Source: Candidatus Bathyarchaeia archaeon (GTDB lineage: Archaea; Thermoproteota; Bathyarchaeia; Bathyarchaeales; Bathycorpusculaceae). Taken from it: 64,000 bases of DNA. Made by a program: the position numbers and the translations under genes. Below the pieces are notes generated by a model, which had not been told where the DNA came from, did no database searches, and saw nothing but the letters and a program-made list of their open reading frames with translations. Below are positions 24,928 to 41,918 of this stretch, in pieces; position 1 is the first letter of the stretch; each line of letters starts with the position of its first letter. Location of the stretch: assembly GCA_049516875.1 (NCBI GenBank), contig JBEKSS010000011.1:32001-96000 (forward strand), given 5' to 3'.

Positions 24928-25006
24928 TCTGCTTCTCTCTTGGATAAGGTTTAAATGTGTAGGTTTAGGTATAAAAGGCATGACTTCATGGGTTTGAGGG
25001 TTTAAA

Positions 25007-25795: not shown

Positions 25796-26170
25796 ATGGG
25801 CGTGACCAATCCTGCTGTAAGCATCAGTGGACTAAGAGAAAGAACTTCTGGAAAGTATGTCAAAACATCCCTTGATTTGGTGGTATTGGCAATATTAAAC
25901 GACAAACCTATGCACGGTTACAAGATAATGGCAGCCATACATACAGAATTCGGCGTTTTGCTAAGTCCGGGTACTCTTTACCCTCTTCTTCATTCGTTGG
26001 AGGAAAAGAAATTGGTAGAATCACGTGTTGAAGGGGGGAAGAAAGTTTACGAAGCCACCAACGAGGGAAGAACAAGATTCCAAAATGCGTTCACGATGTT
26101 TAAGGTATCAATGAATCAGCTGGAGAGCTTTGTAAAACGAAACGGGAAAAATTCTCTCAATGATTCGTAG
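25796..26170 (+). CDS. PadR-family regulator, GvpE-like
   Basis: LDLVVLAIL..MHGYKIM..FGVLLSPGTLYPLLHSL. Confidence 0.85.
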   Translation: MGVTNPAVSISGLRERTSGKYVKTSLDLVVLAILNDKPMHGYKIMAAIHTEFGVLLSPGTLYPLLHSLEEKKLVESRVEGGKKVYEATNEGRTRFQNAFTMFKVSMNQLESFVKRNGKNSLNDS

Positions 26171-26211
26171 GCATTCTAGACAAATTCTATGATAAACCTT
26201 GACCTATTTTT

Positions 26212-28131
26212 TCATTGTCTCGCTTCCAAGAGAGTTATCATTTCTTTTAGTTTGTTCATCTCCTTCTCGGTATGTCTGTACGGTGTTTCTTCAAGTCTCT
26301 TTACTGTTTCCGCAATCTCTCTTCTCTCCTCGCTGGATGCTTTGTCACCCAATCCTTTTTCTACTGCAGAGGCCAATGTCCTGGCTTGGCTTACCCTTTT
26401 CACCTTCATGGTCATTCCGTTGGTCTGCTCTACCAACATGTCAATGTAGTCTTTGATTTTGTGAGCATTACTGCTATTCAACGTCCCCTCAAGCCTGCCT
26501 ATAGTTTCTTCCAGAGTCCCTTTTTCCTTTTCAGTGATTTTCCCGGTTACTTCTTCTATCACTTTCTTCGCCTCATAAATCACATTCTTTGCCCGGCAAC
26601 GGATTTCGATGTTCTCTTTTCTCTTTTCGTCTAAATCGTTAAACTTGGTTGCTTCGATGATCATCCTGGTGATTTCTTCTGCCAACAGCGCTGTCGACTT
26701 TAATACTTCAATTGTTTCTTTTTTCCCAGTTTCAAGAATCTCGGCAGAGACGCCCAGTATGCCATCAGCATCAATTTTGAAGGTAACTTCGACTTTCTGT
26801 TCATATCTGGGCGCTGGCAAAATCCCTTCTAGCTTAAACAAACCCAGTGACATGTTGTCCTTCGCCATCTCCCTTTCTCCTTGTAGAACGTGGATCATCA
26901 TTGAAGTCTGGTCATCTTCTTCCGTTGCAAAAACCATACATGCCTCGGTTGGAATTGTTGTATTCCTCTTGATCAATCTAGTAAATATTCCACCAGACGT
27001 CTCGACGCCTAAAGACAGAGGAGCAACATCCAGCAAGAGCATATCTCTCATTTCACCTTTCAGAACGCTTGCCTGTATACAAGCCCCAATAGCAACAATC
27101 CCCATCGGATCTATGCCCCTCTCAGGTTCCAATCTCGAGAAGAAATCTTTGAAGCATCTTCGGACTATTGGCATTCTAGTTGGTCCGCCCACGAGAACAA
27201 GTCTATCTATATCTTGAGAACTAAGGCCGGAATCTTTCAGGGCTTGTCCCAATGGATATTGGAGTCTATCCAGTTCAGGCTTTATGAGTTCCTCTAGCTT
27301 GTCTCGTGCTAGAACAATGCTCGGGTTAATTTCTGTCCCTTCTATGTTGATCTGAGTCTTCACGGTTGTTGAACGCCTACTGGACAGGTGAATCTTGGCT
27401 AGTTCACCAGCGTCTCTGAGCTTATTCAATATTCTTTGGTCATTTCGTACGTCAACGTTGTATCTTTCTTCGACTTCCTTGACGAGGTAATCCAGAATTC
27501 TGTCGTCCATGTCTTTACCGCCGAGATGGGTGTCTCCGCTTGTAGATAGGACTCTGAAGATTCCGTTATTCATTTGCAGGATCGTCACATCAAAGGTTCC
27601 AGAGCCCAAATCCAACACCGCGATTTTCAGGTTTTGACCGATCTTGTCTAGACCGTAAGCTAACGAGGCTGCCGTTGGTTCGCTGATAACTCGCAAAACC
27701 TCGAACCCTGCTTTTTCTCCGGCCTCTTTTGTGGCGTTTCTTTGGTTGTTATTGAAATATGCGGGGGTTGAGATTACCGCTTTGTCTATTTTCTCTCCCA
27801 AGTATATTTCAGCATCTTTTTTTATCTTCTTTATTATGAGAGCAGAAATTTCTTGAGAGGTGTACTTGTGACCATCTATTTCTACAGTGTAGTTTGTGCC
27901 GATTTTTCTCTTGATCCATCGTATCGTTCTGTCAGGATGAATGTAAGCGTATGTCTGAGCGTTTTTCCCGATGGCTATTTGGCCATCTTCTTTGAACGCT
28001 ACGACAGAGGGAAACATTTTTCCATATGGGGTCGCTCCTTCAGATGCTGGAACAAGCTTTACTTTACCATCCTTCAGCACAGCTGCAGCAGAGTTAGTAG
28101 TTCCAAGGTCTATTCCTATTGTTCGACCCAT
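26212..28131 (-). CDS. dnaK: Hsp70/DnaK paralog with divergent substrate-binding domain
   Basis: IGIDLGTTNS, TPAYFN, DLGSGTFDV, GGPTRMP, linker DMLLLDVAPLSLG. Confidence 0.92.
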   Translation of the reverse strand: MGRTIGIDLGTTNSAAAVLKDGKVKLVPASEGATPYGKMFPSVVAFKEDGQIAIGKNAQTYAYIHPDRTIRWIKRKIGTNYTVEIDGHKYTSQEISALIIKKIKKDAEIYLGEKIDKAVISTPAYFNNNQRNATKEAGEKAGFEVLRVISEPTAASLAYGLDKIGQNLKIAVLDLGSGTFDVTILQMNNGIFRVLSTSGDTHLGGKDMDDRILDYLVKEVEERYNVDVRNDQRILNKLRDAGELAKIHLSSRRSTTVKTQINIEGTEINPSIVLARDKLEELIKPELDRLQYPLGQALKDSGLSSQDIDRLVLVGGPTRMPIVRRCFKDFFSRLEPERGIDPMGIVAIGACIQASVLKGEMRDMLLLDVAPLSLGVETSGGIFTRLIKRNTTIPTEACMVFATEEDDQTSMMIHVLQGEREMAKDNMSLGLFKLEGILPAPRYEQKVEVTFKIDADGILGVSAEILETGKKETIEVLKSTALLAEEITRMIIEATKFNDLDEKRKENIEIRCRAKNVIYEAKKVIEEVTGKITEKEKGTLEETIGRLEGTLNSSNAHKIKDYIDMLVEQTNGMTMKVKRVSQARTLASAVEKGLGDKASSEERREIAETVKRLEETPYRHTEKEMNKLKEMITLLEARQ

Positions 28132-28157
28132 TCCGATCTGCCATCCCGGAAGATAGC

Positions 28158-29159
28158 TCAGTAACCTTTCTCGTGTATAAGGAGAGCTTCTTCGACCTTG
28201 GATTTGTCAAGAGAGCAGAGATAATGTTCGCAATACTTTGTCAGCAATTCGTGTGCGTTCTTGAGCTTCTTGAATTTCTCTTCAGCAAGAGGGTCGTCTG
28301 GGTGGAGGTCTGGGTGACATTCGCGCGCGAGTAGATTATATGCTGAGTTTACTTCGGACATGCTTGTTTCCTGACTAAGATCCAAGATTCTTCGTGCTTC
28401 TTCTATAGCCTTGAAATCTATCTTTTTCATTTCAATGTTTACGAAATTGTATGGCGGCAAAGGACTGATGCTCATGAATTCAAGTTTCCCCTTGTACTTT
28501 CTTTCCAATTCCTCTAATCCATCATTAAATTCTTGTTCTTGTCTCTTGTCGACCAAAAAAGAAGCGCTCATTAAGGTGTCTTGATCAAGGATTTTGCTTT
28601 CTTTAAACCCTTCCGCCAAATTCTTCAAAGCGATTTCTATATTCTCCAAGTATTCATTCTTTTTCCTGTCTAGAGCTGACTTAACTTTCCTTCCAAGCTC
28701 AATCTTCAGTGACTGGTCGTTAATCTCCTTTATTTCTCTGCTTAATGCTCGTATTTCTTCATTTTCTTCCAGAATGGATACTAGGATCGATTTGTTCCAT
28801 GAAATCTTGACGTTGATCTGAACTTTGTGGTCTATGTTTTTCAAGATGTGCTGGAATTTCTTTCGAGCTCGTTTCAAAACGTTTCTTATCTCTGTCTCAT
28901 CTTTGGCTACAACGCCGAAACCAATGGGGATTACTGTGTGAGTCTCCATAATTTTCTGCAGTGCCTTTTCGTGGACCCCAGCTTCTTCTATGTCAATCTT
29001 GAAACTTTCAGGGACATCACTAACTGCGGTGCCAATATCTTCGTATCGAACTACAAATACCTCGCTGTTGTCAATACCAATGCAGCCGAAGCTCTCTTCA
29101 TTTGCTGATCCTACAATTCCATAGACATATTTTCTCGTCTTATCCATACTTTTCTTCAC
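28158..29159 (-). CDS. GvpF/GvpL-family protein fused to a C-terminal J-domain
   Basis: KYVYGIV, HEKALQKIM..TVIPIGFG, SPLPPYNFV; then EARRILDL..VNSAYNLLARECHPD..AEEKFKKLKNAHELL. Confidence 0.88.
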   Translation of the reverse strand: MKKSMDKTRKYVYGIVGSANEESFGCIGIDNSEVFVVRYEDIGTAVSDVPESFKIDIEEAGVHEKALQKIMETHTVIPIGFGVVAKDETEIRNVLKRARKKFQHILKNIDHKVQINVKISWNKSILVSILEENEEIRALSREIKEINDQSLKIELGRKVKSALDRKKNEYLENIEIALKNLAEGFKESKILDQDTLMSASFLVDKRQEQEFNDGLEELERKYKGKLEFMSISPLPPYNFVNIEMKKIDFKAIEEARRILDLSQETSMSEVNSAYNLLARECHPDLHPDDPLAEEKFKKLKNAHELLTKYCEHYLCSLDKSKVEEALLIHEKGY

Positions 29160-29749
29160 CTCATTTCATTTTTGCAATCTTTCTTGCGATTGAGCGAGGC
29201 GAGCAAGGCATTTCCAATTGCTTCCTTGAACTCTCCGATTTCTGAAACATAGACGCGGCCTACTTCGCCGCCAGTGAACTGAAAATAAAGTTCATCACGC
29301 TCTGTTTTGAAGTGAGTTTCCTTTTGCACAATAAGTCCCTCTATCTTATCTAAAGGTGCCTCAAAAACAATCTCGGTAGGCTCTTTCCTCCAAAGGAAGA
29401 GCCTGTTGTTCGTAAGATACCATAGGCCTGGCTTCCACGTGTTCACGATGCCTTGATTGCTCCAGACCGATCCAAAGGCTTTGATTACTATTTCCTCATC
29501 CATGGTTAGCGGCACTGCCACTTTTTTCGCGTATTCTTTCTCATACCATTCCCTTGTGCGCTTGTCCCACGCTTCCATCATCCCATATTCAATCATGGTC
29601 TCTATACCTGCGATTGCCGCCTTCAAGTTCACCCCTAACAGTGGAACGCCTGCAATAGATATGATCAGGTCTGCGTTCAGGACTAGCCCATTGTCTAACA
29701 ATTTCTGTAGAATGTCGTTGATGTCACATTCTCGGTGGCTAGGTCTCAT
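29156..29749 (-). CDS. GvpA/J/M-family protein with C-terminal PH/GRAM-like domain
   Basis: DILQKLLDNGLVLNADLIISIAGVPLLGVNLKAAIAGIETM; C-terminal GLWYLTNNRLFL. Confidence 0.8.
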   Translation of the reverse strand: MRPSHRECDINDILQKLLDNGLVLNADLIISIAGVPLLGVNLKAAIAGIETMIEYGMMEAWDKRTREWYEKEYAKKVAVPLTMDEEIVIKAFGSVWSNQGIVNTWKPGLWYLTNNRLFLWRKEPTEIVFEAPLDKIEGLIVQKETHFKTERDELYFQFTGGEVGRVYVSEIGEFKEAIGNALLASLNRKKDCKNEMR

Positions 29750-29751
29750 TC

Positions 29752-30582
29752 TCAGATTTCCCCAAGTTTGACAAAACTAAATGGTGCCCATGGACCAGTG
29801 AAGCGAACCGCATAACCTTCTTGACCTATTTTACCGAGTGCTTGGCCGAGACCCTTGATGTTATCCTCGTGGACCAGGCAGGAAAACGCTGCAACTAGTT
29901 TCTCGTCTTTATAGTTCTCTGGTAAATGTGAAACTCTTCTCTCAATTTCCATTTCTTCAACGTGTTCTTCTATCTGGAAAGCGAACTCTTCGGCCAGTTT
30001 GGCTCGCGTTGCATTACAAGCATCGTTTAGTTTTAGTTCAAGCTTTCGACGAAAAAGGTATCCAGCTCGTTCAGGCATCTTGCTTGTTTTCTCTTTCAGT
30101 TCCCTTAGGGCTTGATCTTCAGCCAAGACTCTTTCCACTAGCCTCTCTTCGTCGGAGAAGATCTGAACCACATATTCTGCTCTTTGGCTGAGCCGTTCAA
30201 GCTCATGCTTGAATTTCTCATGGCACCTTCTCAGCCAGTCTTTGACGGTAATGTCACTACCCTTGACAATGGTGTCAAAAGAAAAAGGAATTACAGTGCC
30301 AAAATGCTCTGTGGCTCCATCGACTACATCATTGTGACTTAGAACCCACTCCATGACTTTTTTTGCGTCCTTTGACTGGTATGGCTGGCTTTGACAAGCA
30401 TGCACTACTGCTGCAACATCCTCGTGGGGAACTGTGTAGACTTCGGCTTTCGCTATTCCTATGTTACCCAAGCTCAGCTTGGCGGCGCCGTTGACGACAC
30501 AGTATACGTATCTTCCTTCTGCAAGCTCAGTTTCTCCGAGGAGCTTTGTTTCTTTCATGCTTTTTTCATCTCCTTTTCCCAT
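29752..30582 (-). CDS. gvpL: Gas vesicle protein GvpL/F
   Basis: GRYVYCVV, HNDVVD, TVIPFSFDTI, VRFTGPWAPFSFV. Confidence 0.85.
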   Translation of the reverse strand: MGKGDEKSMKETKLLGETELAEGRYVYCVVNGAAKLSLGNIGIAKAEVYTVPHEDVAAVVHACQSQPYQSKDAKKVMEWVLSHNDVVDGATEHFGTVIPFSFDTIVKGSDITVKDWLRRCHEKFKHELERLSQRAEYVVQIFSDEERLVERVLAEDQALRELKEKTSKMPERAGYLFRRKLELKLNDACNATRAKLAEEFAFQIEEHVEEMEIERRVSHLPENYKDEKLVAAFSCLVHEDNIKGLGQALGKIGQEGYAVRFTGPWAPFSFVKLGEI

Positions 30583-30860
30583 CTTTCTGGGTTTAGAAAT
30601 ACGTCGGTTACTTCAGAAAGGCCATCAATTACAGAATCTACGACATCTTGAATGTCGTTCTCTTTCTTTATGTGGTTCAATGCCTCGTTAAGGTCGGCTA
30701 GGGCTTCGCTGAGCCTTGCTTCTTCTTCAGCAGTCAACCTACCACTCTCAATTCGCCTTAGGGCTTGCCTCTCAAGAGCTTCTTCTATTATTTCAGCTAG
30801 AGCAACTACGAGCCCTAACAAGCCTTGTTTGAGGTTGCCTTCATCAACCTTGATTACCAT
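30555..30860 (-). CDS. gvpK: Gas vesicle protein GvpK
   Basis: GLLGLVVALAEIIEEALERQALRRIESGRLT. Confidence 0.9.
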   Translation of the reverse strand: MVIKVDEGNLKQGLLGLVVALAEIIEEALERQALRRIESGRLTAEEEARLSEALADLNEALNHIKKENDIQDVVDSVIDGLSEVTDVFLNPERWEKEMKKA

Positions 30861-31410
30861 GTCTTCTCACCGCTTTTTTCAGTACAACTTCTAAAACGCC
30901 GTTGTTAACTGTCTTTTTCATATTTCCTTCAACAGCGCTTGTAAGCAAGACTTCTTGATGATATTTTTTTCCAGCTATTATGAGGAAACTGTCTTTGATT
31001 TCAAGTTTGATGTCTTCTTCTTGCAGGGGTATTGAAGCTGTTACCCTTAGAGTATCCTTTTCGTCGTGGAGGTCGAATGATTTGCCGTTGGGTATATATT
31101 CTGTTAGTTCTTCGTTCAGCCACCACGAAAAAGTGATTTTTTCGCCTGTTAATGGATCAAGTTTGGAAGGCTCAAAAATGATGAGAGGCTGCCCCGTAGT
31201 CTCTTGAACCTTTGGATTAATGACCTCCCTTATTTTGACCAAGACTTCCATGTCGGAAGAGGCATTGATAAGATCTGCCAGTTTTCTGATCCCTGCATGT
31301 CTCTCTTTTAGAAGATAAATTAGGATCTGGACGCTCTTCTGGTCTAGCGGGTTCATGGCTTGATTCGTGTTCGTCGAGTCTAAGTGTGAACTTGATGGTT
31401 TCCAAGTCAT
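30844..31410 (-). CDS. wHTH-like + Hsp20-like (GvpH-like) protein
   Basis: C-terminal alpha-crystallin signature VNNGVLEVVL. Confidence 0.65.
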   Translation of the reverse strand: MTWKPSSSHLDSTNTNQAMNPLDQKSVQILIYLLKERHAGIRKLADLINASSDMEVLVKIREVINPKVQETTGQPLIIFEPSKLDPLTGEKITFSWWLNEELTEYIPNGKSFDLHDEKDTLRVTASIPLQEEDIKLEIKDSFLIIAGKKYHQEVLLTSAVEGNMKKTVNNGVLEVVLKKAVRRHGNQG

Positions 31411-31440
31411 TCTTGTCGCCTCAGTTGGCTAGAGCCTCAA

Positions 31441-31851
31441 TTAGGTGAGCTTCACTTTCACTAATGCTTCTTCTTTCGTGATGGCGCTTGCGCTTTTCCA
31501 TCCACACCATGGACACTGATCATCGAGGAGTTGCTCTTTCTCCACGATTTTGTTGCATTGTGGACACCGTTCGTTGTCTTTTGTGGCTTCTTTCCACGCT
31601 TTTGTCTCTAGGTTTGTGCCAGATGGAAACTCTAAACCATATCTTGCTGCAGTCTCGAAAGAGGCTAACGCAGCTCTTATTTTGATTCCAAGTAGTTCAA
31701 CGCCGGCAACAGATACGGCGATGTCAGCATTGATGACTAACCCTTTGTCTAGAATCCTGTCTATGGCATCTGCCAAACCTCCAGAAGAATTTTCCTTCTG
31801 AGGCGTTAATGTTGTCATCTCTTCTTCCCCGACGGATCTAAGGTTCACCAT
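31441..31851 (-). CDS. gvpJ: Gas vesicle protein GvpJ with C-terminal zinc ribbon
   Basis: LADAIDRILDKGLVINADIAVSVAGVELLGIKIRAALASFETAARYGL; CPQC...CPWC. Confidence 0.88.
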   Translation of the reverse strand: MVNLRSVGEEEMTTLTPQKENSSGGLADAIDRILDKGLVINADIAVSVAGVELLGIKIRAALASFETAARYGLEFPSGTNLETKAWKEATKDNERCPQCNKIVEKEQLLDDQCPWCGWKSASAITKEEALVKVKLT

Positions 31852-31972
31852 ATAGCATGGGTCTCCATATCTCTTGAAATTCTGTGATCTGAATCAATTT
31901 TAGGCGTTTTTCTGCTTGGCCTAAGGTACACAATAGCGTTAACCTCGGTTTCTACGTTGTGTGATTTCAATG

Positions 31973-32013
31973 TACATAAGCAATATTCAAAAACCCGATA
32001 CGAAATTTGTTTC
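31973..32013 (-). promoter_or_regulatory. gvpJ-operon promoter with palindromic upstream site
   Basis: GATACGAA-A-TTTGTTTC (31997-32013); on minus, 6 nt later TTGAATAT and TATA-like CTTATGTA. Confidence 0.7.
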
Positions 32014-32243
32014 GAAAATTGATAACCTCTTGCCGGATTGTCTCCTTCGTTGGTATCCATTCAAAAACGGTGACAACAATAAGCTCCACATCTTTTGCTC
32101 GTATGATAAGCCTCCATTTCTGCATCTTCTATCGTTTCGTTTAGAAAAAGTTGCAGCTTCCCTTGCATCCGTTGCGATTATGTACCCCAGCATGCTGTAG
32201 AGGAGACGACTTGGTTCGCTTCTTCTAAGTTGTTTTCATTATT

Positions 32244-32531
32244 CTATTCTGGTATCATCTTCTTTTTGAGGTCTTTTCTGTTCCTAAGATTGCTTATCTT
32301 TTGTTGCTGGTTTAATTCCCTATTTTTGCTTTCGTATTCCTCTTTTGTTGTTTCACCCAGTTCGTAGAGCAATCTGTTCTCTTTTACTTTGTCGTTAATT
32401 CTTCGTTGGATCTCCTCATATCTTGCATCCTCAACGTAATTCGTGATTGTTTCCAGCAGCCAGAGTGTATCAAATGGCGGTACTGATATGCCGAGTGTTC
32501 GAAGCAAAATGTCATCTATTAGAAACGGCAT
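32244..32531 (-). CDS. gvpG: Gas vesicle protein GvpG
   Basis: MPFLIDDILL; LLYELGETTKEEY; follows gvpF. Confidence 0.8.
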   Translation of the reverse strand: MPFLIDDILLRTLGISVPPFDTLWLLETITNYVEDARYEEIQRRINDKVKENRLLYELGETTKEEYESKNRELNQQQKISNLRNRKDLKKKMIPE

Positions 32532-33247
32532 TAGTTCACATGTTTTTTGTTGATTTCGATGCCTTGGGCTCCGATTTTTATGTAAACGAAATTGTGTGGG
32601 GGCCAGGGGCCGCTATAAAGAAGCTTCAGCATGGGATATTTTTCCTGCAAACTTGCCACTTTGTCTGAAAATGCATCAATATCTCCTTTCTTGACCAGAA
32701 AAGATGTGTTTAGAATCAGTCTGTTGGTGAACAAGTTGCCTACGACTGATTGTTTTGCCACGGTGTTTAGTGTCCCTAAGATGTCTGATATGCATTCCTT
32801 TCTTTTTTCAGGGTCAGTAAACCCGATGTCTGAGTTTAGAACAGCCTTCACCCCTAGCTCAATCATGTTATCAACTAGCTGTAGGCATTTTCTAGTTGGA
32901 TCATAAGACTTTGTCAACAAGTGTTTCAATATTTTTTCGTTTTTTATCGTCGTTCCATATTCCACCGGTATGACTGTGTATCTCTCCATTATCTGTCTCA
33001 AGACTTCTATATGCCTCCGTGTATTGTCTTCAGTAATCTCATAATCCTTCATAGGCAAATCGCTAACTAGGGCCGCGATGTCTCTATAAGGAATCGCGTG
33101 GACCTCGTCACCGTTCATTCCTATGTGCCCAAAACTTTTTCCTTCGTTACACAGTATCACGCCATAGAAATATTTTCCTTGTTCGTTTCCTCTCCCCTCT
33201 TTTCGCTCGGACCTCTTGGCAAGCTCTGCGCATTCTTCGCTTGTCAC
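32531..33247 (-). CDS. gvpF: Gas vesicle protein GvpF
   Basis: KYFYGVI, HIEVLRQIM..TVIPVEYG, SGPWPPHNFV. Confidence 0.88.
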   Translation of the reverse strand: MTSEECAELAKRSERKEGRGNEQGKYFYGVILCNEGKSFGHIGMNGDEVHAIPYRDIAALVSDLPMKDYEITEDNTRRHIEVLRQIMERYTVIPVEYGTTIKNEKILKHLLTKSYDPTRKCLQLVDNMIELGVKAVLNSDIGFTDPEKRKECISDILGTLNTVAKQSVVGNLFTNRLILNTSFLVKKGDIDAFSDKVASLQEKYPMLKLLYSGPWPPHNFVYIKIGAQGIEINKKHVN

Positions 33248-33248
33248 T

Positions 33249-34082: not shown

Positions 34083-34124
34083 ACCCTCTCATCTTATCAA
34101 TAACAATTGTGTGATCCAGAGTAG

Positions 34125-34409
34125 TTACCTGTATCTCTCTGCTTTTCTGTTAAGTTTCGCTGTTCTTGTGCCCCATTTCGCCTTCCGTGCTAAGTCTTTA
34201 CATGCTCTTCTTCTCTCTAGCAAATCCACGCTTCTTATCGTTTCAATTACTGTTTCGGAGTTTGTTTTGGAATGCTGCATGGCGTGATCCTTTTGAAGTC
34301 TCATACTTCCCTCCATTCTTCGTCTTGATTCCAGGTCACGGGAGGATTTTGCTCCCATCAAGTGAAAGTAGCTATTTAGACTTCTCTGCCACGAGCTTCG
34401 TCTTCCCAT
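34125..34409 (-). CDS. Small basic hypothetical protein in the gvp operon
   Basis: Fills the gap between gvpO and the regulator; Arg/Lys-rich. Confidence 0.45.
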   Translation of the reverse strand: MGRRSSWQRSLNSYFHLMGAKSSRDLESRRRMEGSMRLQKDHAMQHSKTNSETVIETIRSVDLLERRRACKDLARKAKWGTRTAKLNRKAERYR

Positions 34410-34420
34410 AATTACGTCCC

Positions 34421-34720
34421 TTAGCTAGTTTCTGTCTCGGTTTCAGAGGGCGATACCTTGTCACATCGTCTTCTAATGACCTTCTGTGTCCAGCCGATTA
34501 ACGCGCCGTTCTTGTTGAGTCTAATCTCGTATCTTCCCAGAAGATCCTGCGAGTCCGGTATGGACCTTCTCTCCAACACTTCAACAGTTATTCTCCATTC
34601 TCCCTCTAGTTGTTCGACACTTAAGATGGCTTCTGGTTCTTTACGTATGTACTTCTTTGCAATGGCAAATGCCCGATCGGTGACCTCTTCTATTGACACG
34701 CTAGTTTTCTCTGCCATCAT
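34421..34720 (-). CDS. gvpO: Gas vesicle protein GvpO
   Basis: WRITVEVLERRSIPDSQDLLGRYEIRL. Confidence 0.9.
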   Translation of the reverse strand: MMAEKTSVSIEEVTDRAFAIAKKYIRKEPEAILSVEQLEGEWRITVEVLERRSIPDSQDLLGRYEIRLNKNGALIGWTQKVIRRRCDKVSPSETETETS

Positions 34721-34801
34721 TCCATATTTCCCCCAAGGGATAAGAATGTGGAATTAATTCCCAAGCCTGAAAATTGTTTATCTCCATTCTGAACCGTGTC
34801 A

Positions 34802-35830
34802 TTACGTGTTTTCATTTTGAGAATCTCCATAGGCTTCTTTGATTACAGTCTGTATGAGGTCACTTTTCTTCAATAGTTCTTTTTGGTCGCCTATTTTTGT
34901 TGCAAGAACATCCATGTATATTTGTTCAATGTCTTCTTTTGAGCGGTTGCGTCCCAATGCTTTCAGTCCTTGGCAGATCATTATTTCTGCTCTAGTACTT
35001 GGCTTGGAAGGTTCAGGCATCTTTTCCCTGATTGTTCTAATGACTTGTACTACTTTTTCTGCTTCACCAAATGGCAATTGAGTGTGAGCTTGAGCGATCT
35101 TTAGTTCAGTGCCATAGTCGTAGTAGTCCATGTAAATGTTTATCATCCTGTCAAGCAAGGCGTCCTGAGGTTTGTGTATTCCTGCATATTCTATGGAGTT
35201 GCTTGTTAAGATTATCGCGAAATCTGGATGGACCTTGATGTATCTATTATCTCCAAACATTGTCGGGAGTTCGAGAATCTTCTCTTCTAGCACAGAGAGA
35301 AGGACGTTGTTAGCTTCCGGTTTGGATCTGGCGAACTCATTGTAGACCAGTGTGTAGCCGTACTTACACGCTAGGGTCAGGGGGTTGTCTACCCATGAGA
35401 ACTTGGTCCTATCTCTTGCTTTCATGACGTTGTGAATATATTTGTCTCTCACGCTTTCGGCTTCCATTTCTGAGTATCCTCCGATTAAATCTGTTGTTGT
35501 CATTTGTTCGTCGCCGTTGATCCACACAGTGGGTCTTCCCAAATCCTTTGCGACTTCCATTGCCAGTGTTGTTTTTCCGCAACCTGTTGGTCCTACAATC
35601 TGAAGGGGGCATCCTGCATTGACCCAAAGTTTGACTCTGTCCTTCAGCTTCTTAACATGCTCGGTTTCAACAAAATTCTTAACCGTCGGCACTAGAAATT
35701 CTGTCTTCACGCTTCTGACCAAAAGTTCTACGGCATATTCTTCATTTTCCTGTTTTGAAAGTCTCTCTTGCGCTGTCTCATGAATTCTCGTTCCTCTAAC
35801 TTCTCTTTTATGTGCAGATGTGTATTTCAT
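34802..35830 (-). CDS. gvpN: Gas vesicle AAA+ ATPase GvpN
   Basis: GPTGCGKTT, WVDNPLTLAC, YNEFARSKPEANNVLL, EYAGIHKPQDALLDR. Confidence 0.95.
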   Translation of the reverse strand: MKYTSAHKREVRGTRIHETAQERLSKQENEEYAVELLVRSVKTEFLVPTVKNFVETEHVKKLKDRVKLWVNAGCPLQIVGPTGCGKTTLAMEVAKDLGRPTVWINGDEQMTTTDLIGGYSEMEAESVRDKYIHNVMKARDRTKFSWVDNPLTLACKYGYTLVYNEFARSKPEANNVLLSVLEEKILELPTMFGDNRYIKVHPDFAIILTSNSIEYAGIHKPQDALLDRMINIYMDYYDYGTELKIAQAHTQLPFGEAEKVVQVIRTIREKMPEPSKPSTRAEIMICQGLKALGRNRSKEDIEQIYMDVLATKIGDQKELLKKSDLIQTVIKEAYGDSQNENT

Positions 35831-35874
35831 ATTCTAAAACCACACTCTTGTTGAAGAAGAATTTGAGGTATGTT

Positions 35875-35915
35875 TACTTAAGTAATATTCAAGAGATTGA
35901 TACGAATTTTGTGTC
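35875..35915 (-). promoter_or_regulatory. gvpN-operon promoter with palindromic upstream site
   Basis: GATACGAA-T-TTTGTGTC (35899-35915); on minus, 6 nt later TTGAATAT and TATA-like CTTAAGTA. Confidence 0.75.
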
Positions 35916-36164
35916 AGAAATCGTAAGCGCTCGCGCTAATTAATCGGGGCAGCTGATTCTCTTTTGTCACGTACAGAGTACAAGAAAGGAGATTGGAGCT
36001 GCGGAGATGCCATAGAGTCGCTTTATTGAGAAAAGAAGAAGCTATTCAAATAACATTGCATGTATCAAAGGGAGACATGGAAGCTGGCCTCTTCAAGCTA
36101 ACAGAGACAATAAATCAGATTGCAGCGGATTACTGCCAATGTATAAACATTGGAATTGTTTTGG

Positions 36165-36737
36165 TTACGCTTTTTCGCATAGTTTTTTCAATCTAAGTTG
36201 TAGAATATTGTTTCTATAGGTCAAATCTGTTGTGTCTTTGTTGATGCGAGTTGGAAGCCTGACCATCTTAAAATACTTCTTCTCTGTATTTTCCGCCGTT
36301 ATGGTTACAGAGTTTTCATCTGCTTTTACCTTCACGTCTTTCTCGTCTATGCCCGGCAGCTCTGTTAAAACTACCAAGTAGTTTTCTTCTTCAAAAACGT
36401 CGATTGGTGGCTGTCTCTCGTTCATCAAACTGGGTATATGATGGAGTAATTCGAAACTTCGTGTTGCTCCTGGTCTTCTTAATCTTCTTACGACATTAAA
36501 GGAGTCTTTCAATGTCATCGTATTGGAGGTAACTGCTTTCCTTGTTGCGTGCGTTTGTGGGACATAGGTTTGTTCAAAGCGAACGATGTGTCTGCAACCT
36601 CGGCAATGGTCTATGCTGACTCTGTCTCTTTGAGTGCTTCTGATCGAGGGACAGAAAACCCATTCAGCTCCCGCGATACCTCTAACTAAGAGTTTGTTTT
36701 TTCCTCTTCCGAAAGTTGCTCCACAAATCAGCCACAT
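36165..36737 (-). CDS. Hsp20/alpha-crystallin protein with N-terminal Cys cluster
   Basis: IDVFEE...ELPGIDEKDV...YRNNILQLRL; N-terminal FCP...HCRGC. Confidence 0.75.
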   Translation of the reverse strand: MWLICGATFGRGKNKLLVRGIAGAEWVFCPSIRSTQRDRVSIDHCRGCRHIVRFEQTYVPQTHATRKAVTSNTMTLKDSFNVVRRLRRPGATRSFELLHHIPSLMNERQPPIDVFEEENYLVVLTELPGIDEKDVKVKADENSVTITAENTEKKYFKMVRLPTRINKDTTDLTYRNNILQLRLKKLCEKA

Positions 36738-36844
36738 TCAACGTTCACACACGATGGATATGGATATTCAGAAGAGCGTGCATAAGCCATATTTCGCAAT
36801 TTGGAATATTCCGTGGGGTATAGTGCACTGTTGTGTCGATGTTC

Positions 36845-36885
36845 GATACGAAGTCGGTTACGTTCCATTGAATATATCTTAAATA
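36845..36885 (+). promoter_or_regulatory. gvpA promoter with palindromic upstream site
   Basis: GATACGAA-G-TCGGTTAC (36845-36861), 6 nt, TTGAATAT, then CTTAAATA. Confidence 0.65.
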
Positions 36886-36933
36886 GTACTATTCACTACG
36901 TGAGTCATCGTATAACATAAAAAGGTGAAAAAA

Positions 36934-37158
36934 ATGGTTGGACAAACTCCTAACTCGACTAGTTTGGCTGAAGTTCTTGACAGAGTGCTTGACAAAGGAA
37001 TCGTCGTTGACCTTTGGGCCAGAGTCTCACCAGTCGGCATCGAACTCTTGACCATAGAGGCTAGAGTCGTTGTCGCCTCAGTAGACACCTTCCTGCACTA
37101 CGCCGAAGAGATCACGAAGATAGAACAAGCAGCCATCGGAGTACCCGCTACCGCATAA
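36934..37158 (+). CDS. gvpA: Major gas vesicle structural protein GvpA
   Basis: [51 protein letters not shown]. Confidence 0.95.
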
Positions 37159-37266
37159 GACCAAGGACAGCAAGCGGCCCATATAGGAGATGAAAAAACG
37201 TCTGAAAAACAGGGAAAAGCGGCAAAACATGCGCAAACGGTTGCCAACACTGCAAAAAAGGCACCT

Positions 37267-37674
37267 GTGAAAAAGCACGGTCAAAGGGCCGCCATGCCAG
37301 TGAAAAAGCCAGAAGAGACCCCTCATTCAACAGTCAGAGGCAAGATTGAAGCAATCCAAAGAGAAATAAAAGCAATTCAAATCAAAAGAGCGGCTATTGA
37401 AGAAGGCGCTGCTGAAATTCACACTGGCATACGAGCTATGGAAGTAAGCATAAACAAACAGATCGATAAATACAAAGATGCGATCGCCGTCTTTCATGCA
37501 AGTGTTGGAGACTTCAATAACTCTATTCTTGCGCAGTCGAAGGAAAACGAAAAAGCTGCCGCAACTATCTATTCTGGCGCACGAGAAATCCAAGCAGGCA
37601 TAGAAGCTATGCGGTCAAGTATCGAAGGCAAGATAATGGAAAACGCAGGGTACGTAAAGGACTTTTACGGGTAA
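37267..37674 (+). CDS. Repetitive amphipathic helical protein, GvpC-like
   Basis: Directly after gvpA; internal repeat AAEIHTGIRAMEVSI / AREIQAGIEAMRSSI; ends YVKDFYG. Confidence 0.5.
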   Translation: MKKHGQRAAMPVKKPEETPHSTVRGKIEAIQREIKAIQIKRAAIEEGAAEIHTGIRAMEVSINKQIDKYKDAIAVFHASVGDFNNSILAQSKENEKAAATIYSGAREIQAGIEAMRSSIEGKIMENAGYVKDFYG

Positions 37675-37994
37675 ATACCCCCTTTTTTCGATTTCTTAAG
37701 CTCATGTTAGACTTATAGTTTGGAGGTGGCAAAAATCACTATTATGAGACCGAAAACCCATTTGCGCGCTCAAGAAAGAGAAAGAAAGCAAAAGTGGTAT
37801 ATGCAAGAAATGGAAAAACTGCAACACTTATCTATCGCCATGCGTCCACAAGCGATTCGCGCCTTATGGGTAAGAGATGTCGTTAAGAAAGAAGAGGAAG
37901 AATAACCGCTTGCAGAAGGACATCTCCTTTCTGTTTTTCAGTTCCGATGTTTGAGCGCGCGCATAGTGACCTGCAGGTTAGGAAAGGTGGACGT

Positions 37995-40190
37995 GTGCTG
38001 GAGCATACACAAAAATCGAATATCTTGACACTTCGTGTGGCTGAAGCCTCGCAAAGAGACTTTGGCAGGGGCGTAGCTAGAGTCGACCCCGAAGACCTGG
38101 GAAAAATCAGTGCGGAAACCGGCGACGTTATCATAATTACTGGGAAGAAGAGAACTGCTGCGAAGGTTATGCCAGCATACCCAGAAAACCGTGGCAAAGG
38201 CATCATCCAGATCGACGGGATAACCAGGAACAATGCACTTGTCGGAATTGACGACAAGGTTCACATCGAGCGAGTTACTGCTGAAAAAGCCGAAACCGTT
38301 GTTCTCGCGCCTTTGGACAAGACCCAGTCTTGGCTTAGAGAGAAAACATACGAAGACCATGCGAAGAAGCTTTTGGAAGGTTTGCCACTGACTGAAGGAG
38401 ACCAAGTCAGGTTTAGCTTTCTTGGGACAAGTGCCTCCTTTGTCGTAGCGCAATTGAAGCCGAAGAGTATGGCTGTTATAGTTTATCCCAGCACAAGAAT
38501 AATGATACAAGAAAAGGCCGTGGAAACGGGAAGAACAGTAGGCGTCACGTACGAAGACATTGGTGGGCTCCGCGAACAGACTCAGAGAATAAGAGAGATG
38601 ATAGAGCTTCCACTTCGACATCCAGAGGTCTTTGACCGGCTAGGTATAGAACCGCCTAAAGGTGTCTTGCTGCACGGTCCACCAGGCACAGGAAAAACCC
38701 TCATTGCAAAAGCCGTCGCGAACGAAACTTTCGCGACTTTTATCAGTCTCAGCGGCGCCGAAATCCACGGCAAATATTACGGAGAATCAGAGGCTCATCT
38801 AAGAGAAATCTTCAATCAAGCCGCACAAAATAAACCGTGCATCATATTCATCGACGAAATCGATGCCATAGCACCCAAGAGAGAAGAGGTTACGGGAGAA
38901 GTTGAAAAGAGAGTAGTTTCCCAACTGCTAGCTCTGATGGATGGATTGGAACCTAGAGGACAAGTGATGATCATTGGAGCGACAAATCGGCCTAATGCCA
39001 TTGACCCGGCTCTTAGAAGATCAGGGAGGTTCGACCGGGAAATTGAAATAGGGATACCCAACAGGGAAGGGCGATTCGAGATTCTTCAAATTCACACGCG
39101 AGGTATGCCGTTGACCCAAAATGTAAACTTGCGAAGACTTGGTGACTTGACTCATGGCTTCACTGGTGCTGATATGTCGGGATTATGCAAAGAGGCATCT
39201 ATGAAAGCCTTGCGGAGAGTTCTGCCTGAGATTGACTTCGAAGCAGAGTATATCCCAGCAGAAGTTCTTAACAAACTTGTAGTAACGATGGAAGATTTTG
39301 TGGATGCCTTGCGTTTTGTAGAACCTTCCGCCTTAAGGGAAGTGTTGATCGAAACACCTAATGTCGGTTGGAGCGACATTGGGGGGCTGGAAGAAGTGAA
39401 ACAGGCCCTGATGGAAGCCATTGAATGGCCATTGAAATACCCCGACATCTTTGAAAGAATGGGGGCGAAGCCTCCGAAAGGCATATTGCTATACGGGCCT
39501 CCCGGAACTGGCAAAACTCTGTTAGCCAAAGCTGTGGCTAAGGAAGGCGAGGCAAATTTCATTCACGTTAAAGGGCCATCTCTCATGAGCAAGTTCGTGG
39601 GCGAATCGGAGAAAGGCATAAGAGAAACCTTCAGGAAAGCAAAGCAAACTGCGCCGTGCATAATCTTCTTTGATGAGATAGATTCTATGACGCCTAGGCG
39701 CGGAAGCGGAATTACAGACTCGCATGTTTCAGAAAGAGTGATAAGCCAACTTCTTACCGAAATGGACGGGCTGGAGGAACTTCAGGGAGTCATCATTCTA
39801 GCCGCAACAAATCGAATAGATCTGATTGACCCGGCACTACTGAGACCCGGAAGATTCGACTATCTTCTTTCCATTCCGGCACCAGACGAAAAAGGGAGAG
39901 CAGAAATTTTCAGGATTCGCACCAAGAAGAGTTCTCTAGCCAAAAGTGTTTCCCTCAAGAAGTTGGTTGCAGAAACTGAAGGATACACGGGGGCTGACAT
40001 AGAAGGGATCTGCAGAGAGGCTGTGATGCTAGCCATCAGAAGATATATAGGCAAAAGCACAAAACAAGACGAAAACAGACGAAAACACTCCAAGCTTGAA
40101 GTGACCATGGAAGACTTCCAAGAAGCAATCAAGAAAATGAAGGAACGCAAAAAATCAGTTGACACCAATCAGGAAGAACCTATCCTATGA
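37995..40190 (+). CDS. cdc48: CDC48/VCP-family AAA ATPase
   Basis: Two GPPGTGKTL modules; [30 protein letters not shown]. Confidence 0.95.
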
Positions 40191-41179
40191 GAAAACTGAC
40201 GGCCAACGGAATTCAAAGTCTGAACTTTCAAGGAGACATAGAATCTACTAAAAAATTGATCAATCAGACACTCCGGAAAATCCATAAAAAAATGGTAGAA
40301 TTATTCAACATCGATTTCACGTACTTTAGAGACATCAACATAATCAAGCAACCCGAACTTCTCAAGCAATTGGCCAAACGCATGTGGAGCGATCTCAAGG
40401 AAAGCGGCGTAGTATGTAGCAACGACCATATGAAACAAATCCTCGACAGCCTTTCAAAGAACCAAGTGGAAGGATTCTTCGAAAACTTCGCTTTCTATAA
40501 CCCGAAAGATGAAATTCTGTACATAAATGAAAATGTCATAACAAACCACCCAAAAAGAGTGATTCCTATATGCGCACACGAGCTGTCGGAGAAGCTTCTG
40601 TCCACTTATCTTTCGAAGTCCCTTAAAGCGCCCACCCAAGTTCTTATCAGGAAATATGTTGAAGCTAAGAGAACTAACAGCATAAGGAAGTTTTATGAGT
40701 ATTTGGACATGTACATAGATACGGTTTTCAAGAGTGTTTTCAAAGAAGGGTGTTGCGAGGCATTGGCTCTTCGAACCTTGCGCGACACAGAATATGGAGT
40801 TGAGACGGCGTCGCTGGAAAAAGAGTTGTTGATAGGTCATTCAAAATGTGTAAAACTTCTCTTTTCTCTTGAAAGCATAAGGAGTGCAGAAAGGGCAAGA
40901 AAAGCCGAAGTGCACCTGCAACGCGAAGGGGGCCAAGGTCAAGAGATAAACGCGGAGAATCTGGCCAAAGAGTTTTTCCGGGATTCCCAGGTGATTAAGG
41001 GGCTCTCGTATTATTTAGGTTACCCACTAGCAAAGGCTGTTTTAGAGAAGTACTCGATTGAGGGTGTGAAAGCTGCTCTGGAAAAGAGCCCCCCGCTTGA
41101 GGCCAAGTATTTTGCTGCTCCGGAAGAGTACGTAGCCCTGCTGGAAGAACTGCAAGTAGCTAGTGAACAGAGGAGGTGA
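40187..41179 (+). CDS. Hypothetical protein with degenerate zincin-like motif
   Basis: [24 protein letters not shown]; overlaps cdc48 and the hsp20 gene. Confidence 0.65.
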
Positions 41180-41918
41180 AAAAACGACTAAAAAAGCGAA
41201 AAAAGACTTGGAAACACTCAGGACCGAAATTAAGCAAAAAGAAGAGGAAATTGAACAGTTGAAAGAAAAAGTGGAAAAGATGGGGGTTCAAATCCAAGAA
41301 AAAGAGAAACAAGAGAAAACTGGTGAACCAGAGCTGGGCAAGATGATCGAGAATGTCTCAGGTCTGCTTGACGTTGGTTTCGGCATTTTTGGCACGTCGG
41401 AGAAGAGCCAAGGCGGAAAATCGAAAGGTCAAGGATTGATTGGATTAATCGATGATTTAAGCAAACTGACGGAGAAATCTCAGACATATCAAAAGAGAGT
41501 TGAGCTTGGAAAAACGGGGGAAGTCAACTTCCGCGTGACTTCTCGTCCGATAAGAGGGCCTGCGGCAAATATGGCAGACAGAATAAAGATGAGTAAGCCT
41601 CAGAACAAGGTTTCTCCTGCTCCGACAAAGATTCCTGCAGGGCCAATAAAGGAGAGAGAACCAATAGTTGATGTCTTCGAAGATGGAGATTTCGTAAATG
41701 TCATGGCTGAGCTGCTTGGTGTAGAAGAAAGCAAGGTAAAACTGGAAGTAGAGAACGATGTCTTAACGATAAGGAGTGACACTTCTGCAAGGAAATACTA
41801 TAAAGAAGTAAAACTTCCGACATCTGTCAAGAAAGACCCTGTTGAATCAAAGTTCAGGAACGGTATCTTAGAAATCAAGTTAGTCAAGGCAAAGCGTTCT
41901 CCAGGAAAAGATGCTTAG
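41163..41918 (+). CDS. Coiled-coil + Hsp20 (GvpH-like) protein
   Basis: REPIVDVFE...KYYKEVKLP...FRNGILEIKL. Confidence 0.85.
   Translation: MNRGGEKTTKKAKKDLETLRTEIKQKEEEIEQLKEKVEKMGVQIQEKEKQEKTGEPELGKMIENVSGLLDVGFGIFGTSEKSQGGKSKGQGLIGLIDDLSKLTEKSQTYQKRVELGKTGEVNFRVTSRPIRGPAANMADRIKMSKPQNKVSPAPTKIPAGPIKEREPIVDVFEDGDFVNVMAELLGVEESKVKLEVENDVLTIRSDTSARKYYKEVKLPTSVKKDPVESKFRNGILEIKLVKAKRSPGKDA

Follow-up and report, generated by a model that had tools for sequence, protein, structure and literature searches.

A 64,000-nucleotide stretch of DNA from a Candidatus Bathyarchaeia archaeon (assembly GCA_049516875.1, contig JBEKSS010000011.1, positions 32,001 to 96,000; here called the window) contains a cluster of gas vesicle (gvp) genes on an island of 17,679 bp (25456-43134), lodged between rpl37e and a conserved gene, u216. 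We consider it likely that this island is genuine, intact and recently imported, and that it gives one anaerobic Bathyarchaeia population the genes for gas vesicles, a proposed chaperone-assisted mechanism included; this reading is drawn from gene content and sequence comparison. In anoxic sediments and peat, the Bathyarchaeia rank with the most abundant of the uncultured archaea; they are commonly regarded as residents that do not move.

Genes were assigned from a listing of open reading frames (ORFs), by Pfam searches (32 ORFs, expect value E ≤ 0.01) and by NCBIfam profile searches. All gvp genes listed in the original prediction lie where it had placed them, and GvpA, GvpN, GvpL, Cdc48 and DnaK score above the curated NCBIfam cut-offs. 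The shell protein GvpA is encoded on the plus strand at 36934-37158; its ORF opens with GTG at 36925, and the ATG at 36934 is the start in L014, the corresponding locus of a second, distantly related Bathyarchaeia genome, G414. GvpA scores 129.3 bits against NCBIfam halo_gas_GvpA (cut-off 112), 126.7 bits against a second GvpA model (cut-off 100) and 54.5 bits against PF00741, matches the solved shells 8gbs and 7r1c at E ~1e-22, and is 77% identical to Halobacterium GvpA. The AAA+ ATPase GvpN (34802-35830, minus strand) scores 328.3 bits against TIGR02640 (cut-off 266.8), carries a Walker A motif in its translation and is 44% identical to haloarchaeal GvpN over 96% of the length.

The other core genes also lie on the minus strand. 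GvpO (34421-34720) scores 67.5 bits against PF05800, above cut-off, and is 34% identical to its Halobacterium namesake. GvpF (32531-33247; PF06386, 139.8 bits) is 33% identical to Halobacterium GvpF and matches the solved GvpF 6l5d at E 2.8e-5, and GvpG (32244-32531) is the best match of Halobacterium GvpG, at 33% identity over 93 amino acids (aa). Next come GvpJ (31441-31851; PF00741, 59.3 bits, cut-off 25; 48% identity to Halobacterium GvpJ), GvpK (30555-30860; PF05121, 59.9 bits, above cut-off; 40% identity to Halobacterium GvpK), GvpL (29752-30582; NCBIfam GvpL, 213.1 bits, cut-off 200; 31% identity to Halobacterium GvpL) and a GvpM-like protein with a Gas_vesicle domain (29156-29749; PF00741, 44.1 bits, cut-off 25; 44% identity to Halobacterium GvpM), whose C-terminal extension of ~130 aa has no Pfam match at E ≤ 1. 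Three proteins of the island belong to PF06386 (139.8-202.4 bits). When the Halobacterium pNRC100 proteins were searched against the window by BLASTP, counterparts of A, N, O, F, G, H, J, K, L and M were the best matches, at 31-77% identity; GvpC, GvpD and GvpI found no counterpart among the window proteins. Since A, F, G, J, K, L, M and O are each best-matched, the set that the original prediction gave as essential in haloarchaea is complete.

Directly 3′ of gvpA lies a gene for a repeat protein of 135 aa (37267-37674, plus strand), which had been called GvpC-like. The gene is real and conserved: it directly follows gvpA in the loci of six relatives, and a shorter form is present in three archaeal loci from outside the Bathyarchaeia (titled Nitrosotalea, Methanophagales and 'archaeon'). 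Its product consists of repeats of ~18 aa that vary in copy number, and ends in Y-x-x-x-F-Y-G, invariant in seven aligned Bathyarchaeia loci, or in F-W-G in the three non-Bathyarchaeia loci. The likeness to GvpC extends to position and repeats and not to homology; the protein is thus described here as a putative GvpC analogue, not a detectable homologue.

Two further features of the core deserve mention. The C-terminal tail of GvpJ has a CxxC...CxxC pattern resembling a zinc ribbon, with both pairs present in 7 of 8 orthologues from relatives and one pair in the eighth. A small basic protein of 94 aa, u94 (34125-34409, minus strand), matches nothing in Pfam or NCBIfam and is conserved in L014, L015, L016 and L035. 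As a separate observation, a second GvpJ-like gene stands between gvpG and gvpJ in three relatives (BA2, L016 14627-14941; G008, L034 10318-10626; G355, L035 10300-10488), and the extra proteins of BA2 and G008 also have the CxxC...CxxC tail. In the window and L014 the same interval is a 392-bp spacer with a poorly conserved ORF and no second GvpJ-like gene. That the window spacer (31852-32243, ORF 'u71') is a decayed second gvpJ was considered and found no support, as tblastn with the BA2 and G008 proteins matched gvpJ only.

On the minus strand, from 36737 down to 26212, the order is Hsp20a, gvpN, gvpO, u94, MEDS-PadR, gvpF, gvpG, gvpJ, u188, gvpK, gvpL, the GvpM-like gene, GvpL-J and Hsp70; on the plus strand, from 36925, it is gvpA, the gvpC-position gene, Cdc48, u330 and Hsp20b, and PadR1 closes the left end. 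The divergent operons of the original prediction are thus a real layout, and one that arose by an inversion of ~2 kb relative to two relatives. By blastn, orientation switches at 35927-37963 (Hsp20a, gvpA and the gvpC-position gene) against both L014 and L017, where gvpA, the gvpC-position gene, gvpN, gvpO and the rest through Hsp70 form one co-directional array, and Hsp20a, Cdc48, u330 and Hsp20b run opposite. After the inversion, gvpA reads into Cdc48 and Hsp20a reads into gvpN. The junctions carry short GC-only runs absent from L014, and both are bridged by contigs from other metagenome runs (X6 record 12, 30392-38306; X5 records 5 and 6). An invertible switch for phase variation was considered and set aside: there are no long inverted repeats at the junctions, and the X5 and X6 contigs have the window orientation alone. 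A 15-nt pair (35900-35914 and 38007-38021) lies outside the true breakpoints. The G414 island, for its part, has a 1-kb insert between Hsp20a and gvpA, flanked by perfect 47-nt direct repeats (L014 7688-7734 and 8699-8745); the repeat includes a TATA-like stretch upstream of gvpA, and the insert has family-less ORFs of 108 and 121 aa.

The host is a Bathyarchaeia genome of 2.43 Mb in 20 contigs (97.5% complete, 5.4% contaminated; the window is on contig C11). Its GvpN has its relatives in Candidatus Bathyarchaeota/Bathyarchaeia genomes, BA2 among them. The genome has CdhC (acetyl-CoA synthase) and, at 97.5% completeness, no match to COX1 (haem-copper oxidase), which fits an anaerobe; the TACK/Bathyarchaeia-type anaerobe proposed from the letters alone is therefore borne out. 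A survey of the class, which the original prediction had called for, found PF00741 in 7 of 401 sampled genomes: this one, 3 of 103 from the same family and 3 of 71 from a second family. In a sample of 401 genomes from the phylum, the count was 8. Ten class loci were compared (the window, L014-L017 and L031-L035), and both the core gene order and the assembly set are kept in all ten.

Chaperones, the Cdc48-u330 pair and regulators

Beyond the genes originally listed, the island encodes an Hsp70, a J domain on a third GvpL/F protein, a Cdc48, u330, three Hsp20-like proteins and two PadR regulators. The Hsp70 is of DnaK type (26212-28131, minus strand; PF00012, 592 bits; NCBIfam DnaK, 662.9 bits, cut-off 648). 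The genome has another copy, the housekeeping DnaK of the grpE-dnaK-dnaJ operon on contig C12, with which it shares 47% identity. Next to it is GvpL-J (28158-29159, minus strand), a GvpL/F paralogue with a C-terminal J domain (PF06386, 181.8 bits; PF00226, 48.2 bits, cut-off 27.8) whose HPD motif, at residues 282-284, is invariant in 18 of 18 aligned diverse fusions. Such fusions form a large family: a search of a library clustered at 50% identity gave 165 representatives (E ≤ 1e-30), the majority matched across both domains, and both Pfam domains were present in 9 of 11 sampled long representatives. The Hsp70 gene adjoins the GvpL-J gene in all ten Bathyarchaeia loci (the window and nine others). 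On this conserved adjacency alone, we infer that the J domain may stimulate the Hsp70 ATPase. Among the loci read, in-cluster Hsp70 and u330 were seen in Bathyarchaeia only.

Three proteins resemble small heat-shock proteins. Hsp20a (36165-36737, minus strand) scores 24.5 bits against PF00011 (cut-off 20.8) and 21.6 bits, just under the cut-off of 22, against the GvpH family PF05455; it is the best match of Halobacterium GvpH, at 31% identity over 72 aa. Hsp20b (41163-41918, plus strand), which has a coiled-coil N-terminal half, scores 27.3 bits against PF00011 and 91.4 bits against the NCBIfam archaeal Hsp20 model (below 140). The third, u188 (30844-31410, minus strand), occupies the gvpH/I position, scores 46.8 bits against the same NCBIfam model (E 2.3e-12; below 140) and is present in 6 of 9 relatives' loci.

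The Cdc48/VAT-type double-ring AAA+ ATPase (37947-40190, plus strand; TIGR01243, 1012 bits, cut-off 803) probably starts at a GTG near 38000. It is the third paralogue in the genome, the other two being 57% and 55% identical to it and encoded elsewhere. The start of u330 (40187-41179, plus strand; 330 aa) overlaps the Cdc48 stop by 4 nt. The Cdc48-u330-Hsp20b set is found in 5 of the 10 class loci within the fetched DNA; four loci in which it is not visible are cut by a contig end or by the end of the fetched stretch, and L031 has an Hsp20b-like gene and no Cdc48.

The u330 protein belongs to a family of 174 proteins, 0 of the 120 listed having a Pfam entry, and has been seen so far only with these gvp clusters. 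Its AlphaFold2 model (predicted local distance difference test 80.1, predicted template modelling score 0.82) suggests a zincin fold of the thermolysin/M1 kind. With VIA-align, the model aligns over 180-238 residues to 3cmn, a 'putative hydrolase' (Z 14.4), to M1 aminopeptidases (Z 9-10) and to thermolysin (Z 8.1), scores to be read with the caution that mostly helical models typically reach a best Z of ~14 against unrelated chains. The M61 and collagenase catalytic domains also align, Z for M1, thermolysin, M61 and collagenase being 7-10. The Foldseek match is weak (best E 0.066), the protein atlas offers leads below 0.9 only (a Zincin_2 cluster at 0.89), and neither u330 nor the gvpC-position protein has a meaningful match among the sequences of solved structures. 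Residues H131, E132, E135, E187 and E191 are invariant. A predicted complex of u330 with two parts of Cdc48 (the N domain, and D2 plus tail) scored 0.01, to which we give no weight either way.

Two regulators complete the set. PadR1 (25796-26170, plus strand) scores 62.6 bits against PF03551, the Pfam family of GvpE. Of the nine relatives' loci, three have its counterpart next to gvpA and six have it at that end of the gvpN-Hsp70 block where Hsp70 and GvpM lie. The MEDS-PadR protein (33249-34082, minus strand) joins a MEDS-type sensory domain (PF14417, 30.8 bits) to a GvpE-like winged helix (PF03551, 30.3 bits). Aligned to Halobacterium GvpE with hhalign, it gives a probability of 96.9% (E 1.4e-10, 33% identity over 80 columns), and Halobacterium GvpE itself matches PF03551. 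The idea of a fused GvpD and GvpE holds for the E part alone, the likeness to GvpD being put at 0.2% by hhalign. GvpD was also sought with PF07088, found in none of the 32 scanned ORFs (E ≤ 0.01), and by BLASTP, which gave chance-level matches to Cdc48 only.

Proposed function of the gene set

In the mechanism that we propose, GvpA would polymerise into a gas-filled shell, with GvpJ and the GvpM-like protein as putative minor shell or tip components. GvpF, GvpL, GvpG, GvpK and GvpO would nucleate assembly, the AAA+ ATPase GvpN would drive growth, and the gvpC-position repeat protein may coat and stiffen the shell, as GvpC does. The J domain of GvpL-J would recruit the island Hsp70 to the assembly complex, where it could handle the very hydrophobic A, J and M proteins. 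The three Hsp20-like proteins would keep these proteins soluble, taking the role of GvpH, and Cdc48 with u330 may unfold, and perhaps degrade, vesicle protein that has been misassembled or has collapsed. The system would be switched by the two GvpE-like PadR regulators, of which one has a MEDS sensor. The likely pay-off would be vertical positioning in water-saturated peat or wetland sediment.

Comparison with G414 gives a ratio of nonsynonymous to synonymous divergence (dN/dS) below 1 in all 20 island genes, with a range of 0.08-0.82; the lowest values are those of GvpK (0.08), Cdc48 (0.09) and GvpA (0.10). In a related strain from another metagenome run (X8), the island has five indels of 1-2 bases (28161, 35862, 36927, 37677 and 42101), and against the ORF map all five are intergenic or at the extreme end of a gene. 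The low ratios, together with indels that lie outside coding cores, imply that the cluster is maintained as coding sequence.

A number of observations weigh against an intact, recently imported and working gas vesicle island, and we collect them here. Gas vesicles and buoyancy are so far a prediction from the genes. Some core proteins fall short of family cut-offs: GvpG for both PF05120 (26.6 bits, below 30.6) and NCBIfam (35.8 bits, below 85), and GvpJ and the GvpM-like protein for the haloarchaeal NCBIfam models (99.7 against 125 and 80.4 against 109, respectively). The gvpC-position protein has no Pfam match at E ≤ 0.01 and no GvpC family among its matches at E ≤ 1, and Halobacterium GvpC, searched by BLASTP against the window proteins, gave only a chance-level match to GvpK (E 0.51). 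Constraint is weakest in GvpO (dN/dS 0.82), u94 (0.54) and the gvpC-position gene (0.52). The zinc motif H-E-x-x-H is absent from u330, all 30 sequences having H131-E132-x-x-E135 in its place. Because of this difference, protease activity is uncertain and the protein is not filed as a member of the zincin metallopeptidases; with its modelled fold, it may work like a metallopeptidase or be inactive. No integrase or transposase was found among the island ORFs with Pfam and NCBIfam, and the island-bearing form is the minority in two metagenome runs (X6 and X7). Near-identical island DNA occurs in 20 run rows from 16 studies, 9 of the 20 holding at least half of the sampled words and four being marked as a possible source; the labels are peat, wetland, sediment, groundwater and soil metagenomes, and no RNA run is among those listed. 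None of these is an open-water habitat, so it is not evident what a cell would gain from buoyancy. Finally, the intact gvp clusters of soil actinomycetes are not known to give visible vesicles.

These last points bring us to the alternative that survives best, namely that the cluster is intact and maintained and yet does not serve flotation in this organism. It would then lie cryptic, or be expressed to some other end, for instance a stress response, gas storage or a change of cell density in dispersal, as might be the case in soil actinomycetes. We regard it as unlikely. The habitat labels suit it, as does the minority status in two runs; so does the stress-type load of chaperones (Hsp70, three Hsp20-like proteins and Cdc48), and the gvp clusters of Streptomyces are not known to produce vesicles. 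Against it stand the GvpA sequence, which shares 77% identity with a proven shell protein and is strongly constrained (dN/dS 0.10), the retention of the entire assembly set in every one of the ten loci, and the repeated horizontal spread of a complete 16-kb set, which argues that the complete function is what is selected.

Within the preferred reading of a working gas vesicle island, a more far-reaching version can be put forward as a tentative idea, one that we would not yet bet on. The island may be a self-contained, horizontally traded organelle kit with its own proteostasis, in which a private Hsp70 would load shell proteins through GvpL-J, Cdc48 and u330 would dismantle or recycle vesicles, and the MEDS/GvpE-like regulator would tie the system to a chemical cue. 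Buoyancy control would then be reversible, which could explain the coexistence of island-bearing and island-free strains of one species.

Recent lateral transfer among Bathyarchaeia

The original prediction placed an insertion after rpl37e, and the borders can be drawn to the base. To the left is the LSm-rpl37e pair (25007-25428), to the right u216 (43133-43783, minus strand) with a HAD hydrolase (together 43133-44546). The 9-bp sequence ATGATGATT is present as a direct repeat at 25447-25455, the original 3′ end of u216, and at 43135-43143, its present 3′ end. In metagenome contigs that carry the empty joint (25424 to 43135), a 22-nt spacer, identical to window positions 25425-25446 at 14 of 22 places, is followed by ATGATGATT. 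This spacer, and the repeat at both borders, indicate that the inserted DNA is 25456-43134, flanked by 9 bp duplicated from the end of the u216 coding sequence. The matches to L37e and u216 are at most 600 bp apart on one contig in 16 of 30 relatives, and at most 220 bp apart in 11 of these 16; the spacing is 19-20 bp in G414 and G415, and the site is empty in the same-genus G401, in G288 and in others. The gap is wider in three relatives (G404, 16.6 kb; G403, 6.8 kb; G354, 2.5 kb), and for the remaining 11 no single contig was found with both matches. There are no tRNA genes among the features found in the window, and thus no tRNA attachment site.

Divergence from G414 points to a recent event. 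The block 25768-41931, which nearly coincides with the span originally reported (25796-41918), is 85-91% identical in DNA to the G414 locus on a 2.0-Mb contig, while the proteasome-FttA-SepF flank is 73% identical in G414 and 76% in G415. By the Nei-Gojobori method, synonymous divergence (dS) from G414 is 0.09-0.53 in all 20 island genes, compared with 1.0-2.2 or saturation in all 8 housekeeping genes of the flank, for both G414 and G415. G414 has nothing inserted between rpl37e and u216; its island is found ~1.27 Mb from there, within one and the same contig. GvpN was found in none of four other species of the same genus (a lone 20-bit match with three in-frame stops was disregarded), whose housekeeping flanks are 82-89% identical to the window. 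The AT-richer composition that had been noted is also apparent on the scale of the genome: the island has a GC content of 43.5% compared with 47.2% (z -2.4), the fifth lowest of 274 windows of 16 kb, and its tetranucleotide distance (z 2.8) is the third highest. Low island dS against saturated flanks, empty sites and odd composition lead us to conclude that the island entered recently, from another Bathyarchaeia lineage or a shared donor. With the 9-bp repeats, the lateral acquisition suggested at the outset stands, as recent transfer among Bathyarchaeia.

Contigs from metagenomes give an independent view of the site. We compared Logan contigs of four runs (X5-X8), from four studies and none marked as a possible source, with window positions 24500-44000. 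The left edge is bridged without differences by X5 record 1 (24500-26683), and the right edge by X6 record 14 (39105-43235) and X5 record 8 (41873-43177). The chimeric contig that had been named as a possible refutation of the prediction is thus contradicted by assemblies of other origin. The empty joint is present in two of the runs at much greater depth, 215 compared with ~8 for the island in X6 and 1491 compared with ~5 in X7, and its flanks in X6 and X7 differ from the window at 28 of 925 positions. It follows that an island-free form, ~97% identical, dominates both samples. As a side observation, the X8 contigs, from a strain 95-99% similar, stop matching at 36160, 31593 and 42674, then continue into 255 nt of unrelated sequence, so that sample may contain yet another arrangement of the island.

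It has to be asked whether the island could instead be ancestral to Bathyarchaeia and vertically inherited, its patchiness the result of many losses. The same gene order, Hsp70 and GvpL-J included, is found in two families of the class with GvpN only ~57% identical, which shows that the class has had the cluster for a long time. Between the window and G414, however, island dS is 0.09-0.53 while synonymous sites are saturated in all eight housekeeping genes. The G414 island sits elsewhere on the chromosome, the four same-genus genomes gave no GvpN, the empty site is clean in a 97%-identical strain, and the composition is atypical. We therefore judge vertical inheritance very improbable. The cluster can be old in the class and still have been transferred recently within it; it is the purely vertical reading that fails. 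An artefact of assembly or binning, by which the gvp block of another organism was joined to a Bathyarchaeia contig, might be suspected from the 20-contig assembly, its estimated contamination of 5.4% and the lower GC of the island, and is scarcely conceivable given that contigs of other studies cross both edges and the inversion with 0-1 differences, that the cluster recurs in nine further loci of the class, two of them on contigs of 2.0 and 0.9 Mb, and that the flanks are archaeal core genes (proteasome subunit, FttA, SepF, PUA, LSm, L37e and S10) syntenic in 30 of 30 relatives.

Outside the block that is common with G414, the recently imported island has two end pieces of its own. The left one (25456-25767), which has no match in L014 or L029, has a single ORF of 79 aa (25523-25762, minus strand) that matches neither Pfam nor NCBIfam. 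The right one (41932-43134) is a mosaic of sequence repeated in the genome, with an ORF at 42825-43148 that corresponds to the C-terminal (RMMBL) part only of a beta-CASP RNase (PF07521, 26.5 bits); by blastn, three segments within 42353-43091 have copies, 80-88% identical, on contigs C2, C4 and C5 and in genomes of the same genus. Beside the G414 island are an ORF of 185 aa with a sub-threshold integrase match (23.2 bits, below 27.1) and a GIY-YIG ORF. The rpl37e/u216 site holds unrelated inserts in two other species of the genus, of 16.6 kb in G404 (L025, G404:C11:34700-52700) and of 6.8 kb in G403 (L026, G403:C5:26300-33600). The former encodes a tyrosine recombinase, GNAT acetyltransferases and family-less proteins of 1244 and 889 aa, and both have an archaeosortase-like gene. 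These unrelated inserts mark the site as an insertion hotspot.

Three features of the wider window can be noted. In several relatives, G401 and G288 among them, the HAD gene and rps10 are almost neighbours; here they are separated by ~2.6 kb of additional DNA (44546-47186), possibly another small insertion, which includes a gene for an archaeal ATPase_2/wHTH protein (45573-46736). In the interval between sepF and the PUA gene (24157-24368) lies a repeat with units of ~60-210 bp, found at well over 50 places on at least 11 contigs at 73-97% identity, with weak copies in the same-genus G404. From its sequence it looks like a dispersed element, of the miniature inverted-repeat transposable element type or another. 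Finally, positions 840-17914 encode large, secreted-looking proteins with PQQ-like beta-propellers, Laminin_G_3, CARDB and a dockerin domain, as well as a 908-aa solute-binding protein, which suggests a putative neighbourhood of cell-surface or polymer-binding genes.

Significance and comparison with known systems

Our literature searches covered open-access PMC and bioRxiv, with subscription journals and supplements outside their scope. Within it, we found nothing that links gvp genes to Bathyarchaeia: co-mentions of 'gas vesicle' with Bathyarchaeia or Bathyarchaeota were incidental, those with Thermoproteota included none relevant by title, and no report of a GvpL-J fusion or of an in-cluster Hsp70 with GvpL was found, the fusion being judged by titles and the openings of abstracts. 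What is new, then, is that this class, for which no gvp genes were reported in that literature, has a canonical core on an island shown to be mobile, together with an unusual proteostasis and regulatory complement. Already public are the cluster in the BA2 record, the automatic protein names of NCBI, and gvp genes in print for another lineage of Thermoproteota. If the proposed function holds, a maintained and exchanged gas vesicle kit, present in ~2% of sampled class genomes and variable between strains, would mean that some populations can change depth or disperse, with consequences for their encounters with substrates and redox gradients. Independently of that, the locus is a clean case of recent transfer of an island from one uncultured archaeon to another, in which the same samples yielded the filled site and the empty one. 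As to applications, proteotoxic stress accompanies heterologous expression of vesicles in E. coli, according to a part of PMC12848028; the built-in Hsp70/J pair, Cdc48, small heat-shock proteins and u330 may point to natural answers to such stress, and are testable parts.

The best reference is p-vac of Halobacterium salinarum (pNRC100, gvpACNO/gvpDEFGHIJKLM), which has counterparts here for A (77%), N (44%), O, F, G, H (Hsp20-like), J, K, L and M. In the Bathyarchaeia relatives, the order A, gvpC-position gene, N, O...E-like regulator, F, G, J, (small heat-shock gene), K, L, M is nearly collinear with Halobacterium ACNO plus EFGHIJKLM, and the likeness of Halobacterium GvpE to the PadR domain is shared by the island regulator. 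Unlike p-vac, the island has no GvpD, GvpI or sequence homologue of GvpC that was found; it adds Hsp70, a J domain on an extra GvpL/F, Cdc48, u330, two more Hsp20-like genes and a MEDS sensor. Its host, moreover, is a non-halophilic anaerobe of a different phylum.

Closer to home, BA2 (L016) and other Bathyarchaeia metagenome-assembled genomes (L014, L015, L017 and L031-L035) have the same gene set at 40-92% protein identity, sharing Hsp70, GvpL-J, MEDS-PadR and Cdc48-u330-Hsp20b with the island. The window differs from L014 and L017 in the inverted Hsp20a-gvpA-gvpC-position segment, from G414 in its chromosomal site, and from BA2 and G008 in lacking their second GvpJ-like gene. NCBI automatically names u330 of BA2 a 'hypothetical protein' and a GvpL-J of the same family a 'GvpL/GvpF family gas vesicle protein'. 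Five Thermoproteota genomes from outside the Bathyarchaeia, and so from the same phylum as the host, also have GvpA, J, M and GvpF/L, with Gas_vesicle-domain genes within ~1 kb of each other; in all five, the GvpL/F match stops before the J domain. In the same phylum, a passage of PMC3835317 describes Ca. Nitrososphaera gargensis as the only thaumarchaeote then known to encode gas vesicle genes, and a figure legend in PMC7554672 places gas vesicle genes among families of ammonia-oxidising archaea.

For the Cdc48-u330 pair, a works-like comparison can be made with the FtsH-type AAA+ metalloproteases, which likewise combine an AAA+ unfoldase with a zincin-fold module. Unlike FtsH, the overlapping genes encode separate polypeptides and u330 has H-E-x-x-E in place of H-E-x-x-H; binding and proteolysis are putative.

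For GvpL-J, the closest bacterial parallel is the plasmid-borne cluster of the gas-vacuolate sea-ice bacterium Octadecabacter arcticus 238 (pOA238_160), where a GvpL/F also has a C-terminal J domain (PF06386, 145.9 bits; PF00226, 28.0 bits) and an Hsp20 gene is present; the 24.8-kb stretch that was read has no annotation for Hsp70, Cdc48 or u330. Gas vesicles are attributed to Octadecabacter species in a portion of PMC7876419. A metagenome scan with one distant GvpL/F-J fusion as query yielded five loci. Three metagenome gvp loci (L037, L039 and L040) have an Hsp20b-like gene, a Cdc48 (50-58% identical) and GvpL-J adjacent to one another, as in the island, and, unlike the island, no match to Hsp70 or u330 in the fetched DNA. 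The module of small heat-shock protein, Cdc48 and GvpL-J is therefore not peculiar to Bathyarchaeia, and the J fusion and Cdc48 emerge as recurrent parts of gvp clusters.

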